Assembly: GCA_947494205.1 (NCBI GenBank)
Contig: CANLUH010000004.1
Coordinates: forward strand, 152,773-216,772
Direction of reading: 5' to 3'
Length of the DNA stretch: 64,000 nt
DNA from: an uncultured Flavobacteriaceae bacterium
GTDB taxonomy: Bacteria > Bacteroidota > Bacteroidia > Flavobacteriales > Flavobacteriaceae
This document shows, piece after piece, positions 21,558 through 52,100 of the stretch. Numbering within the stretch: position 1 is the stretch's first letter; every line of letters starts with the position of its first letter. The position numbers were made by a program, and so were the translations under genes. The notes under the pieces are model-generated. The model saw only the letters and a program-made list of their open reading frames with translations. It ran no database searches and was not told the origin of the DNA.

Positions 21558-21830
21558 ATTTATTTCCTGCGAAAGCAGTAATCTTATTATCGTTATTTTA
21601 ATAACTTAATTACCGATAGCAAATTACTGCAAATACAGTAATTATTAATGGTTTCTGAAGCAAATATGTAATGCTTTTACGCATTGTTTTTGCGTAGTGG
21701 TTATTTTTTATAATATAATCTCAATACAAAATTCCTGAAAAAGGAATTCCACTCGATTTGACGATTCCACAGACAATATATTAAAGCATAGCCGATAATT
21801 TTAATAGTATTTTTCGACTATGCTTGTATA

Positions 21831-22829
21831 TTACCTATACAGAAACGTCTCTTTAACCATATTTGCTGCTTCTTTGTTAAGCATTTTGGTCATTCTTTTT
21901 TGACTTTCCTTTTCTGTATTTTCCCATTGTGACTCGTAATCTTTTTTAAAGTCTACAAGGGCATCTTGTGCAAATAGTCCAATGGTTTTTCCCATTTGTT
22001 TTAATGAGAATTCTCCAAGTTTACTTTGTACATTCATTAATCTATTTTCGCTTACATAACTTAAAAGGTAATTAGCAGTTTCTTTTTCTAAATCTGAAAA
22101 TACTTTAACCTCTTTTGTTATTTTATTTTTTGAATGTGTTCGTTCTGACCATTTTTCATTTTTATTTTTAAAAATAACACGCTGTCCATTTCTAAAATGC
22201 TTACTTATAACTGGCTTAATAATTACTCCTTCGCAAATGTTTTCTTCAATTTCTGGAAGTTTTAACCAAGTTGGGATTTTAGACTGAAATGTATTTGGGT
22301 AGTCTAAACATTTTTGCAGCGTTCCTTGAAATAAGGTTTTTGCGTAAAATAGTTCTACGGTTTCAAAATAGATATTTACTACAGATACATCTAAATATTT
22401 GGTTTGATTAATACAAATATCGAATGCATAAAAGTCGTTTTCTGGGCTGTAGAATACACCTTTTTGTACTCTAGGCATTCCTTTTATATTATCGACATCT
22501 GGGTGCTCATAACTACCTCCAAACAATTCTCCAAAAACAGTAATTACTTCTGTTTCTGGGTAATCTATCTTTACTAATCCAAATAGGGTTTTTATAGCCT
22601 CGGAATAAGTATCTAATACATATTGGTAATTGCTAAAGTTTTCTCCTTCTAAAATGAGACCACTACGTTTTGCAACATGTATCTCTTTACCATTAGTAAT
22701 AAAAGAAAAGTTAGCGCCATGTACTTTTTCTTGTACCACATAGGTTTCTTTATCATAACCATGTAGGTAGATTTGCTCTACTTCCTTTTCACGGTAAGTA
22801 TTTTCAATACTGTTGTATTTTTTAAACAT
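21831..22829 (-). CDS. RNA ligase, T4 Rnl2 family
   Basis: Starts MFKKYNSIENTYRE... and carries the EKVHGANFS nucleotidyltransferase motif I. Near end-to-end resemblance to T4 RnlB (MFKKYSSLENHY...EKIHGTNFS), recalled from memory. Confidence 0.85.
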   Translation of the reverse strand: MFKKYNSIENTYREKEVEQIYLHGYDKETYVVQEKVHGANFSFITNGKEIHVAKRSGLILEGENFSNYQYVLDTYSEAIKTLFGLVKIDYPETEVITVFGELFGGSYEHPDVDNIKGMPRVQKGVFYSPENDFYAFDICINQTKYLDVSVVNIYFETVELFYAKTLFQGTLQKCLDYPNTFQSKIPTWLKLPEIEENICEGVIIKPVISKHFRNGQRVIFKNKNEKWSERTHSKNKITKEVKVFSDLEKETANYLLSYVSENRLMNVQSKLGEFSLKQMGKTIGLFAQDALVDFKKDYESQWENTEKESQKRMTKMLNKEAANMVKETFLYR

Positions 22830-22868
22830 GATTTCTACTTTTTTATTTAATTACTATTATTCTTTAGG

Positions 22869-22940
22869 GGTGACTTCGGGGATCGAACCCTGTTCTCCTC
22901 ATTCACAGTGAGGTACTTTACCTAATAAGCTAAAGTCACC
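22869..22940 (-). tRNA. tRNA-His(GTG)-like with encoded G-1; aberrant T-arm
   Basis: 8-bp acceptor including G-1:C73, D-arm GCTT-ATTAGGTA-AAGT, anticodon arm CCTCA-CTGTGAA-TGAGG. The T-arm has only 3-4 pairs and a 6-nt loop. Confidence 0.45.
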
Positions 22941-22956
22941 ATATTATTCTAATTTG

Positions 22957-48931: not shown

Positions 48932-51001
48932 TTATAATACTACTTGGTTAAAAACCGTTTCTGTTACTTTATTATACCTTAATAAAGTTAAAGATATTGT
49001 TCCTCTACCACTAGTTAAGGTCCTTAAATCGGAGATGTAACCAAATGTTTCTAATAAAGGTACTTGGGCACGTATCTTTCGTTTAGTTCCATCTTCTTTT
49101 ATTTCCATAATAATGCCTCTTTTTTTATTAATGTCTGATGTTACTTTTCCTAAATAATCTTCAGGACATTCAATTTCGGCATTCATTATAGGTTCTAACA
49201 GCATAGGTTTTGTTAAAGTTGCTACTTGTTTAAAACCATGTTTAGCAACAATTTCAAAATCTAATGGGCTAGAATCTTCTGCATGAACCTTTCCGTCTAA
49301 TAAAACCACACGCATCGTTTCTACAGGGTAACCTGCTAATATTCCAGATTGCATAGCTTCTAAAAAGCCTTTTTCAACATTTGGAATAAATTCTTTAGGA
49401 ATGTTTCCACCTTTAATTTCATTTACAAATTCTAATCCCTTTTGTTTTTCTACACTAGGACCCAATGTAAATTTAATTTGGGCGAATTGTCCGTTTCCTC
49501 CATTTTGTTTTTTAAAGACTTCTGTATGTTCTACGGTTGTCTGTAATCGTTCTTTAAAGGATACTTTTGGATTCCCTTTTTGAATGGCTACTCCAAATTC
49601 TGATTTCAACTTTTCTAATCGTACATCTAAATGTAACTCTCCCATACCATGCAAAATGGTTTGCCCTGTTTGCTGATCGAAAGACATTTTTAATGATGGA
49701 TCTTCGTCTAAAATTTTAGCAATAGCTTCTCCAAAATGTTTTTCGTCATCTTTAGATTTTGGTTCCACTGCTATACTTATAACAGGTTCTGACACATCAA
49801 TAGATTCTAGAGTAAATGCATCGTCTAGTTCACACAACGTATCTCCAGTTTTTGCATTTTTTAATCCTATTAATGCTACAATATCTCCTGCTTTAGCTTC
49901 TTTTAGTTCTATAAATTTATCGGCTTGAATTTTTAAAATTCTACTTACTCTATTTTTTTGTTGAGATCTAGAATTTAAAATAGTCTCGCCTACTTTAATA
50001 GCACCAGCATACACTCTAACCATAGCTAAACTTCCTACGTAATTATCTGAAACAACCTTAAATACTAATCCTGTAAATGGTGTACTAACAGAACGTAATC
50101 TACGTTCTTCTTCATTATTTTTATTTACACCTTTTATATACTTAATATCATCCGGCGCTGGTAAGTATTGCGAAATAGCGTTTAATAATGGCTGCACACC
50201 TATATACTTAAACGATGAACCACAAAGCACTGGTACTGCTTGTTGTTTTATTGTAATAGCTCTAATAGCATGCATTAGTTCTGTATTACTAATCGGTTCA
50301 TTTTCCAAATACTTAATCAGTATAGTTTCATCAAAACCAGAAACTGTTTCTATAAGTTGTTCTTTCCATTGCAACAGTAATGGCTTTAAATCTTCAGTGA
50401 CTACTTTCTCTTCCCAAGTATGTCCTAAATCATTCGTATTCCAATACATTGCTTTTTCTGTTATAAGATCAATAATGCCTATAAAATCATCACCTTCTCC
50501 AATAGGAATTTGAAGCACCATTGGTACTGTATTTAATTCTTGTTGAATAGCACTTACAACTTTAAAAAAGTCTGCACCGATTCTATCCATTTTATTAATA
50601 AAACACAATTTTGGAATACCATATTTATTAGACTGACTCCAAACGGTTTCAGATTGCGGCTCTACACCTGATGATGCACAAAATAAAGCTACAACACCAT
50701 CTAATATTCTTAATGAACGTTCTACTTCTATAGCAAAATCTATATGCCCAGGCGTATCTATTATATTAATTTGATGTACCATCTCATTATAACTCCAATC
50801 TGCTGAAATTGCCGATGACGAAATTGTTATGCCTCGTTTTGCTTCTTGAGGATCACTATCGGTTACTGTATTACCATCATCTATATTTCCTGGTTTATGT
50901 ATGGTTCCTGTATAATACAATATACGTTCTGTTGTTGTCGTTTTTCCTGCATCTACATGGGCTATTATTCCTATATTTCTAAGTTGTTTATCTCGTTTCA
51001 T
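48932..51001 (-). CDS. elongation factor G paralog (EF-G-like translational GTPase)
   Basis: 689 aa. G1 motif AHVDAGKTTTTERILYYTG and DTPGHIDF, followed by the full EF-G domain II-V length. Longer than RF3. Confidence 0.85.
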   Translation of the reverse strand: MKRDKQLRNIGIIAHVDAGKTTTTERILYYTGTIHKPGNIDDGNTVTDSDPQEAKRGITISSSAISADWSYNEMVHQINIIDTPGHIDFAIEVERSLRILDGVVALFCASSGVEPQSETVWSQSNKYGIPKLCFINKMDRIGADFFKVVSAIQQELNTVPMVLQIPIGEGDDFIGIIDLITEKAMYWNTNDLGHTWEEKVVTEDLKPLLLQWKEQLIETVSGFDETILIKYLENEPISNTELMHAIRAITIKQQAVPVLCGSSFKYIGVQPLLNAISQYLPAPDDIKYIKGVNKNNEEERRLRSVSTPFTGLVFKVVSDNYVGSLAMVRVYAGAIKVGETILNSRSQQKNRVSRILKIQADKFIELKEAKAGDIVALIGLKNAKTGDTLCELDDAFTLESIDVSEPVISIAVEPKSKDDEKHFGEAIAKILDEDPSLKMSFDQQTGQTILHGMGELHLDVRLEKLKSEFGVAIQKGNPKVSFKERLQTTVEHTEVFKKQNGGNGQFAQIKFTLGPSVEKQKGLEFVNEIKGGNIPKEFIPNVEKGFLEAMQSGILAGYPVETMRVVLLDGKVHAEDSSPLDFEIVAKHGFKQVATLTKPMLLEPIMNAEIECPEDYLGKVTSDINKKRGIIMEIKEDGTKRKIRAQVPLLETFGYISDLRTLTSGRGTISLTLLRYNKVTETVFNQVVL

Positions 51002-51468
51002 TATATATAATTTTTAGTTTACTCCATAAAAAAAGCCTCCCAAAATGAGAGGCTCTTATTAAAGTATTATTAATAGCTTACCTCTTCCACTGTTTAGGGA
51101 ATTTGATTATTGATATTAATTTTAAAGTAAGCTTCATTGTAATTTGTTTGTTTTTTTAATCTATTCTTTTTTTTGAAATAGGTAGAATAAAAAAAGGCTT
51201 CCTAAAAAAGAAAGCCTTAAAATTATATATTAAAGTTTTTCAGTTTAGGACACATTTTCTACTCTACCAAAATACACAGTTCTGATAGCGCCATTGCAAG
51301 CGATGATGTTTCTATTTATCCTAATTGTTTTCATTTTTATTTGACTAATTGAGCTGCAAATATTGGAATTTATTTTTCAATTCTCAAAATTTATTTTTTC
51401 AAGCTCTTAAAATTTGGCTCCATAATACGAAGTATTATATTTTTTTAAATATGCAAGTTTTTTTTCCT

Positions 51469-51999
51469 CTAGTGCGTATTTTTCAAATTAAACGGTTGTA
51501 ATGCTAACTCTAATTTTACTTTTATGTTATCAATTTCTCGAGTTTCTTGAATTATTTTAATCACTTGTTCAGAGTAAAATTTCGCTTCTATTTCTATATT
51601 TCCTACGTAACAAAATCCATCTTCTACATAATCGAAATAATCTTTTAATCTGTATAATTCCCATAGTATTAAATAATCAGTATCGTAATTAAAACCTTGA
51701 GCCAAATAATTTATTATTTTATGGGTTTCTTGGTGTGTTTTAGTACTAGTTATTTTTGAACAAATTTCTTTTATTTCCAGGATTTCTGCATAACTACTAT
51801 CTAAAGAATTCAATACTATACTTTTTAAGTCTGACATCCATGATTTTCCTCTAAAATTGATTGTAATCACATCAAAATACAACAAGTTATTTTCTAGACT
51901 ACCTAAGATTTCTTCTGAAGTATAGAGCCAATTTTCGAATTCTGAAACAGTTATTTTATCTACTAATACATTGAATATTTTAAGTTTAAGTGCCTCCAT
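51469..51999 (-). CDS. hypothetical protein
   Basis: 176 aa with no motif recognised. Terminator hairpin at ~51028-51058 on the minus strand. Confidence 0.35.
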   Translation of the reverse strand: MEALKLKIFNVLVDKITVSEFENWLYTSEEILGSLENNLLYFDVITINFRGKSWMSDLKSIVLNSLDSSYAEILEIKEICSKITSTKTHQETHKIINYLAQGFNYDTDYLILWELYRLKDYFDYVEDGFCYVGNIEIEAKFYSEQVIKIIQETREIDNIKVKLELALQPFNLKNTH

Positions 52000-52100
52000 T
52001 TTTTAATGCTTTTAAACAAAGGTTTTAGATTAATACGCAATCATTTTGCGTATTAATCATTTTAATATAAATTAGATGAAGATTATGGCCATTTTAAACT

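Follow-up and report, generated by a model that had tools for sequence, protein, structure and literature searches.

The stretch of DNA analysed here (the window) comprises 64,000 nucleotides of contig CANLUH010000004.1 from an uncultured Flavobacteriaceae bacterium (assembly GCA_947494205.1), and carries a chromosomal island of RNA-repair and tRNA genes in which seven promoters are built around one 19-bp inverted repeat, TACGCA-N7-TGCGTA. The same promoter, paired with a regulator of the WYL family, recurs beside RNA-repair genes across the Bacteroidota. Comparison with characterised WYL proteins suggests that the protein encoded at 54410..56131 (+ strand) is an activator of an RNA-damage regulon resembling DriD, the SOS-independent DNA-damage activator of Caulobacter crescentus, with the palindrome as its putative binding site. 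We give this reading a probability of roughly 60%.

A preliminary description of the region had counted at least 11 copies of a single shared promoter, with half-sites separated by an N8 spacer. The seven near-perfect inverted repeats among them are real: five are exact (21678, 31274, 34568, 36965 and 52034), one has a single mismatch (40717) and one has two (40561). The remaining four have nothing but the -7 box in common with these and form a separate class. The actual spacer is N7, as the consensus in that description itself read, and an inverted repeat with N8 has no match in the window; the positions had been given correctly to within ~15 nt, with those at 21688, 36962, 40546 and 52027 slightly off. 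At up to two mismatches, TACGCA-N7-TGCGTA matches nine times against 1.42 expected (0/100 shuffles give 9), and the two matches not counted above, at 19665 and 20247 with two mismatches each, are chance-level occurrences within a coding gene. For the box TGCAAATATGTAATG, the same threshold gives 7 matches against 0.47 expected, a count reached in 0/100 shuffles. All seven real sites are inside the minus-strand island, with none in 1-18000 or past 52100, and the expectation that the motif is specific to the island and not common background held good: the repeat is absent from the flanking 30 kb, and elsewhere it is found beside RNA-repair genes.

Each repeat stands at a fixed distance from a -7 element. 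On the minus strand the composite consists of cTACGCAAAAnnAnTGCGTAAt, a gap of 13 nt and TTTG(C/T)A, after which nnGTAATTAA often comes next, and the TTTG begins exactly 13 nt beyond the repeat at 7/7 sites. Every site has (a/c/t)AnnTTTG or TTACTTTG, with TTTG invariant and the first T mostly substituted; the -7-like TAnnTTTG reported previously is present, in the form (a/c)AtATTTGCA, one mismatch off. By the Bacteroidetes convention the G of TTTG is placed at about -7, and the housekeeping sigma factor of the Bacteroidota normally uses a TTG at -33 together with TAnnTTTG at -7. With start sites predicted in this way, the palindrome would span approximately -42 to -24, centred on -33. A TTG at -33, ~19-21 nt upstream of the -7 element, is absent from all of the inverted-repeat promoters, and is in fact excluded, since a TTG at a workable spacing would have to end at palindrome positions 5-11, which read CAAAAnn. 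What had been called the box is the -7 element with a few flanking bases, and the repeat is an extra element belonging to seven promoters only.

The composite promoter is not confined to this genome. A scan of 185,579 species genomes for the exact pattern CTACGCAAAANNNNTGCGTAA returned at least 118 loci. Among the matches listed, to which the counts in this paragraph refer, TTTG was found at 13 nt in 66 of 120 exact matches and at 14 nt in a further 4, always on the same side, which gives the 13-nt spacing in 66/70 promoter-type sites. No consistent TTTG was seen on the side of the palindrome that faces the WYL gene; because the signal is one-sided, the element is oriented, with its A-rich spacer toward the -7 box. 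Nearly all of the ~70 promoter-type sites are labelled Bacteroidota, of several classes, the exception being a locus labelled Thalassovita (L110) that is probably mis-binned. They include Chryseobacterium, Dokdonia, Tenacibaculum, Winogradskyella, Flavobacterium, Capnocytophaga and Polaribacter as well as Saprospiraceae, Leadbetterella, Cytophagaceae and some Bacteroidales, and the remaining matches were coding coincidences (such as the rpsT stretch YYAKTMRNA) or belonged to unrelated phyla. Relaxing the pattern to two mismatches or fewer gave 110 unique sites, with a maximum of 4 per 8-kb locus.

The genes downstream of the composite promoter in other genomes are components of RNA repair: a ~460-aa (amino acid) RtcB paralogue, RlaP, SPFH, PNKP, RNase T, the two unannotated families of 610 and 231 aa described below, Ro60/TROVE-vWA, and whole tRNA arrays, for example ~20 tRNAs in Flagellimonas (L039). 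Judged by this company, the motif marks RNA-repair islands.

A regulator had been thought not obvious inside the window. A strong candidate is the 573-aa WYL protein at 54410..56131, encoded by the second gene of a + strand operon divergent from the repeat at 52034, with homologues beside the repeat in many genomes. It is composed of a winged helix-turn-helix domain (wHTH, residues 1-81), a three-helix linker, a WYL domain (155-222), a WCX domain (264-327) and a PhyH-type Fe(II)/2-oxoglutarate dioxygenase (353-551). Pfam identified PF13280 (E 2e-11) and PF25583 (E 2e-7), and the WYL models of PADLOC matched at E 1e-22; PADLOC recognised the WYL domain alone. Pfam and NCBIfam detected no N-terminal HTH. 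The AlphaFold2 model (mean predicted local distance difference test score, pLDDT, 81.5) shows a winged helix, three linker helices, WYL, WCX and dioxygenase domains, and within it helices 5-19, 27-42 and 50-61 plus a beta hairpin (71-81) make up the wHTH, where pLDDT is mostly 80-93 (range 69-93). A single-sequence search of the PDB was marginal (E 0.026). With a family profile, PafB (7p5x) was the best match, followed by DriD and then, below both, by BrxR and CapW (entries 7qfz, 7tb5 and 7t8k). Foldseek placed the DriD-ssDNA-DNA complex 8tp8 (ssDNA, single-stranded DNA) first (E 5e-13 over ~348 columns including the wHTH), together with DriD and PafBC bound to RNA polymerase (RNAP; 9pfq and 9fnd). 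The modelled fold and the domain order, wHTH, WYL then WCX, indicate that the protein belongs to the WYL transcription-factor family (COG2378, YafY), which includes DriD, PafBC, BrxR and CapW.

The wHTH is also the most conserved part of the protein, with a mean pairwise identity of 72% compared to 46% for WYL plus WCX across 16 short and long forms. Its recognition helix, SKRT(V/I)QxDIQxMRS, is almost invariant, which fits an invariant DNA repeat. Among the matches listed, 22 of the 8-kb loci anchored on the motif gave WYL homologues by tblastn, with 45-87% identity across residues 1-335. In nine loci (L004, L006, L013, L022, L048, L051, L072, L098 and L110) the homologue runs divergently and only 35-60 bp separate its start codon from the repeat, and in L118 a divergent homologue lies ~190 bp from the palindrome. 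Most of these repeat-adjacent homologues are a short 335-aa form without PhyH. The long form is widespread in Flavobacteriaceae, where it is annotated as 'YafY, HTH and WYL domains / phytanoyl-CoA dioxygenase'. The association was also examined in reverse, with a search anchored on three distant long-form proteins from Flexithrix, Roseivirga and Aureivirga. Flexithrix has one palindrome between the WYL-PhyH gene and a Band7-RtcB operon, and Roseivirga has two, one before RtcB-x-RlaP-RlaP and the other before Ro60.

The operon that contains the WYL gene begins with a CAP-domain gene (52101..54407, +), separated from it by a stop-to-start gap of 2 nt. In Chryseobacterium (L025, L055, L067, L082 and L104) a ~110-aa open reading frame (ORF; MVLLEQLKHFPETIQF...) is located between the palindrome and the short WYL gene, paralleling the CAP-domain gene ahead of the WYL gene in the window. 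Directly after the WYL gene is a HEAT/DNA_alkylation-like (AlkD-like) gene (56155..56955, +), which has the same neighbour relationship in Aureivirga (L121, 7278-7937). The dioxygenase part (55466-56131, +) retains the invariant HxD...H...R residues as H439, D441, H538 and R549 and, going by these, is probably catalytically competent. This domain and the AlkD-like neighbour may connect the circuit with nucleic acids that are alkylated or oxidised.

The analogy with DriD suggests how the circuit could operate. A homodimeric WYL factor would bind the 19-bp palindrome TACGCA-N7-TGCGTA, which would substitute for the -33 TTG while the -7 box stays in place, creating a composite and oriented promoter. 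A nucleic-acid ligand, probably damaged RNA or tRNA fragments, would load the WYL domain, and the regulator would then recruit RNA polymerase to promoters that are otherwise weak. Seven units would be turned on: Rnl1-PNKP-RNase T-RlaP, the GOLLD-like and tRNA-like RNAs with SPFH, a tRNA-like RNA with the 610-aa protein, DUF6331, a small RNA, the 231-aa protein with an SDR-like protein and tRNAs, and a 176-aa protein. The motif and its geometry, its conservation across the phylum, its association with RNA-repair genes and with neighbouring WYL genes, and the protein fold are shown by the analysis, while binding of the site by the protein, the direction of control, the ligand and the start sites are all inferred here. 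Damaged RNA is a natural guess for the ligand given that WYL domains bind ssDNA or single-stranded RNA, their proposed link to RNA with 2',3'-cyclic ends, and the RtcR analogue discussed below.

Activation is suggested above all by the likeness to DriD, the best structural match, which has the same wHTH-linker-WYL-WCX arrangement. In every DriD target a 20-bp palindrome overlaps the -35 region at an identical distance from the -10, the promoters lack -35 hexamers, and DriD acts mainly by recruiting RNA polymerase (PMC13004042). The promoters described here likewise have a palindrome over the -35/-33 position at a fixed distance and no -35/-33 element (7/7 sites in the window and, among the matches listed, 66/70 elsewhere). 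The DriD site at didA, ATACGTC...GGCGCA (PMC9186387), begins with a TACG similar to that of the window repeat, and the DriD gene is itself preceded by its site, as are WYL genes here. The differences are considerable: sequence identity is ~16%, the phylum is another one and its promoters follow the -33/-7 grammar of sigmaA, the regulon comprises RNA repair, tRNAs and non-coding RNAs where that of DriD comprises DNA repair, and the long form here adds an Fe(II)/2-oxoglutarate dioxygenase. The ligand of DriD is ssDNA.

PafBC of mycobacteria, known for 'sigma adaptation', offers a second parallel. It has homologous WYL-WCX domains, PafB being the best sequence match, and its targets likewise lack a functional -35 and carry an upstream element at a fixed distance. 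However, PafBC acts as a heterodimer and recognises its short, non-palindromic -26 element only together with RNAP, in contrast to the symmetric 19-bp palindrome centred on -33. BrxR and CapW, from BREX and CBASS systems respectively, share the architecture, palindromic operators, a gene next to the island that it controls, and control over multiple genes throughout that island. They are repressors of anti-phage systems with weaker profile matches, and their operators are not reported to replace the -35 at a fixed spacing.

Several points weigh against this reading as a whole. No repeat was found within 8 kb of the long-form gene in Aureivirga (L121), and in the window 2.3 kb, including the CAP-domain gene, separate the WYL gene from its nearest repeat. 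Many genomes have both the short 335-aa and the long 573-aa form with near-identical DNA-binding domains, so a short paralogue elsewhere could be the main regulator; the window holds the long form only. The scan pattern fixed the half-sites and the AAAA, and part of the conservation seen there follows from that choice. Repression, too, would be served by an operator over -33, and BrxR and CapW, with the same wHTH-WYL-WCX architecture, are repressors acting on palindromes (PMC9186387).

These last two points bear on an alternative in which the same protein binds the same site with the opposite sign, as a BrxR/CapW-type repressor that blocks polymerase at -33 and is released by a ligand. Sharing of the operator with a divergent regulator gene is the classic layout for autorepression, and the inverted-repeat promoters have -7 boxes no worse than those of promoters without the repeat. 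On the other hand, with no room for a -33 TTG at workable spacing there would be little basal promoter to repress; the form that an activator-independent promoter takes in this same island is illustrated by the repeat-less promoters with a -33 TTG. Oriented spacing fixed to the nucleotide (13 nt in 66/70 sites, among the matches listed) is typical of activators that touch the polymerase, and both sequence and fold matches put the activators DriD and PafBC first. The DriD promoter logic, the exact spacing and the orientation therefore favour an activator, and we regard repression as unlikely, if far from negligible. It is improbable that another transcription factor or an alternative sigma factor reads the palindrome, with the WYL gene a mere member of the regulon. 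Around two thirds of the motif-anchored 8-kb loci, among the matches listed, have no WYL gene, and that of the window is not immediately adjacent to a repeat. Yet loci lacking the gene are expected where a regulon has several sites per genome, and no DNA-binding family other than WYL recurs beside the motif, the WYL gene being often divergent and 35-60 bp away (among the matches listed). No other HTH protein was found in the island, the conservation of the wHTH parallels that of the site, and the two-fold symmetry of the 19-bp site fits a dimeric wHTH protein but not a sigma -35 element.

Two further alternatives would deny the repeat an operator function altogether. Shared flanks beyond the core among the window copies, such as GTAATTAA after the -7 box, would be expected had a promoter merely been duplicated and spread through the island by recombination, which we consider very improbable: information content shows that the 19-bp core and its spacing are kept across classes of Bacteroidota while the flanks diverge, and the core is tied to one functional gene set. 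Still harder to credit is a role for the repeat in RNA, as a hairpin or intrinsic terminator. A T-rich tract follows it on the + strand, and a terminator scan flagged the + strand repeats at 21677, 31270, 34565 and 52028. The island, however, is wholly on the minus strand with no + strand gene running into the repeats, elsewhere both flanking genes diverge from the repeat, and on the minus strand it sits upstream of the -7 box without a U-tract. Moreover, the variants TGCGCA and TACGTA are non-compensatory, leaving C-A mismatches, so it is the sequence and not the pairing that is conserved.

The preliminary description had a shared promoter/operator driving the repair and tRNA units of the minus strand, and this stands for the seven promoters with the repeat, all of which are on that strand. 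Promoter 1 (21654..21700; repeat 21678-21696, TTTG 21661-21664, predicted start ~21654) precedes an unannotated 231-aa gene (21557-20862), an SDR-like gene and four tRNAs at 19476-19010; homologues of the 231-aa protein are found downstream of inverted-repeat promoters in L019, L054 and L077. Promoter 2 (31250..31296; repeat 31274-31292), with a 13-nt leader, heads Rnl1 (31237-30209)-PNKP-x-x-RNase T-RlaP-x-RlaP, down to 23942. Promoter 3 (34544..34590; repeat 34568-34586) is followed by 2 kb without an ORF, containing GOLLD-like, YrlA-like and tRNA-like RNAs, and then by SPFH/Band-7 (32551-31451). Promoter 4 (36941..36987; repeat 36965-36983) precedes a 113-nt tRNA-like RNA (36844-36732) and an unannotated 610-aa protein (36431-34599), and this order of repeat, tRNA-like RNA and 610-aa family also occurs in L005, L056 and L106. 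Promoter 5 (40537..40583) has the repeat with 2 mismatches (40561-40579; TGCGCA...TACGTA on the + strand) and precedes a DUF6331 gene (40520-40221). Promoter 6 (40693..40739; repeat 40717-40735, 1 mismatch) precedes a ~95-nt small RNA (~40693-40600) that ends in a 12-bp hairpin plus U5 and has a fold z of -4.6. Promoter 7 (52010..52058) has its repeat (52034-52052) inside a palindrome with 13-bp arms (52028-52058) and precedes an unannotated 176-aa gene (51999-51469); it lies between this gene and the divergent + strand CAP-WYL-HEAT operon, 49 nt from the start of the latter. No inverted-repeat promoter was found upstream of the PcfJ-RtcB-NTase-PrfH-TPR-phosphoesterase operon (47497-40770).

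The RNAs behind promoters 3 and 4 deserve separate mention. At 33510..33987 (minus), ~560 nt past the predicted start of promoter 3, is the conserved 3' domain of what, from its covariance-model match, is probably a divergent GOLLD RNA: it matches the full RF02032 model (1-416) with 136.1 bits (E 1e-36), under the gathering score of 150. Similar matches are located downstream of inverted-repeat promoters in Winogradskyella (L044, 1469-1948, 136.9 bits) and Olleya (L077, 3021-3517, 124.4 bits), with E values across the three genera of 1e-32 to 1e-36 and a distance from promoter to GOLLD of ~550-600 nt in all three. In this setting GOLLD would be a chromosomal component of an RNA-repair regulon. 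Just upstream of the SPFH gene, also on the minus strand, are a YrlA-like RNA (33023-33132, 35 bits) and a tRNA-like RNA (32948-33002, 34.8 bits). At gathering thresholds Rfam returned only tRNAs and Flavo-1, and GOLLD and YrlA surfaced in E-value mode. The 113-nt RNA behind promoter 4 (36732..36844, minus) matches the tRNA model with 52.3 bits and has an insertion of ~40 nt, with equivalents of 115-119 nt in L005 (4142-4259), L056 (1756-1874) and L106 (6980-7283). These 113-119-nt RNAs match the tRNA model, with weaker matches to the YrlA model, and the RNA of the window is possibly a tRNA mimic of the Y-RNA type. They precede a conserved, unannotated family of 584-836-aa proteins (34599-36431 in the window), with which they may form a new Ro/Y-RNA-like ribonucleoprotein.

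The copies without the inverted repeat, at 23515, 39818, 48504 and 48860, share the -7 box only, and two more promoters of this kind that had not been listed before were found at ~23926-23931 and 51355-51360. In most of them a TTG or TTTG stands 24 nt before the TTTG, as in a normal sigmaA promoter; those at 23515, 39818, 48504 and 51360 have it at -33 and that at 48860 does not. Lacking the repeat, and in most cases with an ordinary -33 TTG, these four to six promoters are unlikely to be controlled through the repeat and make up a class outside the palindrome circuit. The proposal of a single regulator over the whole regulon accordingly fits the seven repeat promoters but is unlikely to extend to these. 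Each forms a module with a short ORF and an intrinsic terminator, of which the window has six, and the large tRNA arrays are located behind such cassettes and not directly behind a repeat promoter. The tRNA clusters begin ~235 nt past the cassette boxes, not the 20-100 nt previously described.

Three cassettes, at 23510, 39810 and 48495, had been described as sharing a terminator and a conserved leader of ~200 nt. The first two are homologous in promoter, small ORF and terminator (class A), and the third shares the promoter only (class B); the leader is conserved, though it contains an ORF of 40-44 codons and is not a plain leader. All of the modules are on the minus strand. In the first class A cassette (23304..23570), a -33 TTG and a -7 box (23515-23524) precede an ORF of 40 codons (23482-23360) and then a terminator (23332-23304), and the cassette is followed by tRNA-Leu, tRNA-Gln, tRNA-His and Rnl2. 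The second (39616..39875) has a palindrome, TGATAATCA, at ~-62, a -33 TTG, a -7 box (39818-39827), an ORF of 40 codons (39795-39673, MRNYLQH...FRSP...) and a terminator whose end is at 39616; a 14-tRNA array (39582-37571) comes next. The class B cassette (48326..48560) combines a -7 box (48504-48513) with an ORF of 24 codons (48461-48387) and a terminator whose end is at 48326, and has homologues of 75-82% identity beside the WYL-PhyH gene in L024, L048, L094 and L112. Of the others, that at 48699..48874 has a -7 box at 48860-48869, no -33 TTG, a 21-codon ORF and a 17-bp terminator (48738-48699). The module at 51189..51400, with a -33 TTTG and a -7 box (51355-51364) ahead of an ORF of 29 codons (51334-51245) and a terminator (51218-51189), lies directly upstream of the EF-G paralogue (51001-48932), with a second terminator at ~51030. 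The last is at 23921-23732. The small ORFs in the modules at 48499, 48855, 51350 and 23921 are 21-36 codons long.

Class A members were also found in L039 (5990-6330), L041 (3340-3660), L106 (3700-4060), L125, L130 and L131, the last three being the true homologues among 14 loci from a metagenome scan for class A leaders, in which the others were chance coding matches. The ORF, of 40-44 codons with the pattern M..YLQH....FRSP..., precedes the terminator and the tRNA array. Within it TTCGCTCGCCGA is invariant in 7/8 sequences, even at synonymous positions, and is missing from the window cassette at 23510; it forms a small hairpin (TTCG-CUCGC-CGAA) and uses the rare codons CGC, TCG and CCG. In every case the stop codon is 50-54 nt ahead of the poly-U tract. 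A purine-rich segment near the end of the ORF is complementary to the 5' arm of the terminator and varies together with it (GGGAG-CTCCC, GGAAGG-CCTTCC, GAGAGG-CCTCTC and AAGGAGA-TCTCCTT), with per-sequence shuffle p values from 0.01 to 0.6 (8 sequences, 6 distinct). These features suggest, with modest confidence, that the class A cassette could be an attenuator in which efficient translation of the ORF leads to termination and faltering translation to readthrough into spare tRNAs. Like the trp and his leader-peptide attenuators, it has a short ORF upstream of an intrinsic terminator and an ORF segment able to pair with the 5' arm. Unlike them, it has no runs of a single codon, it controls tRNAs, and good translation is predicted to give termination. 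A palindrome, (T/C)TGATAATCA(A/G)T, is located at ~-62 of cassette promoters in the window (39850-39875, minus) and in L039, L041, L049, L106 and L125; since class I activators classically bind at this distance, a further regulator may control promoters that lack the repeat.

The window has a G+C content of 32%, and the island extends from ~18.3 to 52 kb with all of its genes on the minus strand. It is flanked by chromosomal genes, among them FabH, biotin carboxyl carrier protein, biotin carboxylase, a histidine kinase and prolyl oligopeptidase, as well as proteins sorted by the type IX secretion system with Por_Secre_tail domains. The gene content of the flanks and the presence of Flavo-1 RNA support membership of the Flavobacteriaceae, and one window protein pointed to Lacinutrix and Psychroserpens as the closest named relatives. 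A phage origin was rejected: a megablast of 24 kb against 50,697 phage records gave a 71-nt tRNA-like match as its sole result. The repair enzymes of the island are Rnl1, Rnl2, PNKP, RNase T, RtcB (44678-46069) and the products of two RlaP genes. It also encodes SPFH/Band-7, RNase H-like, DUF6331, TPR, nucleotidyltransferase and PcfJ-like proteins, two metallophosphoesterases and an EF-G paralogue, while six island proteins were left unnamed by Pfam and NCBIfam. PrfH was identified (TIGR03072, 223 bits) two genes away from RtcB (43297-46069, minus); PrfH and RtcB are a known pair for ribosome rescue and repair.

There are 21 tRNA genes in three arrays (19010-19476, 22867-23275 and 37571-39582, minus). 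Anticodon nucleases have characteristic targets, namely the Tyr, His, Asn and Asp tRNAs for colicin E5, Arg-ACG for colicin D and Lys-TTT for PrrC. The island tRNAs cover the colicin E5 set (Tyr-GTA, His-GTG, Asn-GTT and Asp-GTC) and also include Arg-ACG, Lys-TTT, Glu-TTC and Gln-TTG, a match to anticodon-nuclease targets that is consistent with a spare-tRNA function. All three arrays share a repeated element of ~40-50 nt, located between tRNA genes and reading ...GGTGTTCATGAATACTTCGTATT... on the + strand, with copies at 19283-19323, 37683-37731, 38026-38074 and 39396-39444. Near the left edge of the island, the tRNA-Asp region is duplicated with 82% identity (18316-18406 and 19000-19090), the first copy containing a degenerate tRNA (18327-18395), and the duplicate could be an integration scar. 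ARAGORN also reported an odd 'tRNA-???' with a 2-nt anticodon at 19180-19249. A Flavo-1 RNA (31345-31420, +), antisense to the genes, occupies part of the gap that separates the SPFH stop codon from the next inverted-repeat promoter, and matches above the gathering score (54-67 bits) recur inside the islands of L030, L046, L058, L077, L086 and L102.

The components of the island match those of RNA-repair gene sets that Burroughs and Aravind reportedly catalogued in 2016 (NAR): RtcB, Rnl1, Rnl2, PNKP, RlaP, SPFH accompanied by a tRNA-like RNA, proteins of the Ro type accompanied by Y RNAs, and PrfH. The Aravind group later cited that work when linking WYL domains to RNA ends with a 2',3'-cyclic phosphate (PMC7824862). 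In enterobacteria, RtcR senses damaged tRNA and turns on RtcB, Ro60 and Y RNAs (PMC7790460), so that the control of rsr-yrlBA-rtcBA in Salmonella and E. coli by RtcR and sigma-54 is a functional analogue. RtcR is, however, a CARF-AAA+ enhancer-binding protein that works with sigma-54, in contrast to a WYL protein with a sigmaA-type -7 promoter, and Pfam found no CARF-AAA+ RtcR among the 40 largest ORFs annotated (1-12110 and 19486-63959). The literature searched contained no description of the operator sequence, of a composite Bacteroidota promoter that replaces the -33, of GOLLD-like, Y-like or tRNA-like RNAs or tRNA genes as regulon members, or of the PhyH fusion.

Taken more broadly, and only tentatively, the findings may point to a phylum-wide RNA-damage response in the Bacteroidota, in which a WYL activator, sometimes fused to an active dioxygenase, would sense damaged RNA. 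Acting on the one composite promoter, it would induce RNA ligases, end-healing enzymes, Ro- and SPFH-type proteins together with their tRNA-like RNAs, small RNAs and the giant GOLLD RNA. Translation-sensing short ORFs that gate terminators before the spare tRNAs and the EF-G paralogue would form a second, independent layer, and GOLLD would be an RNA induced by RNA damage. If the DriD-like reading is true, this would be the first defined RNA-repair operator and regulon outside the RtcR/sigma-54 paradigm, and the DriD mode of activation, in which a palindrome takes the place of the -35, would extend to a phylum with a different promoter grammar. It would also place GOLLD-like RNAs and Y-like or tRNA-like RNAs in a single inducible circuit, where their function becomes testable. 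The motif itself provides a practical genomic marker of RNA-repair and tRNA islands in the Bacteroidota.

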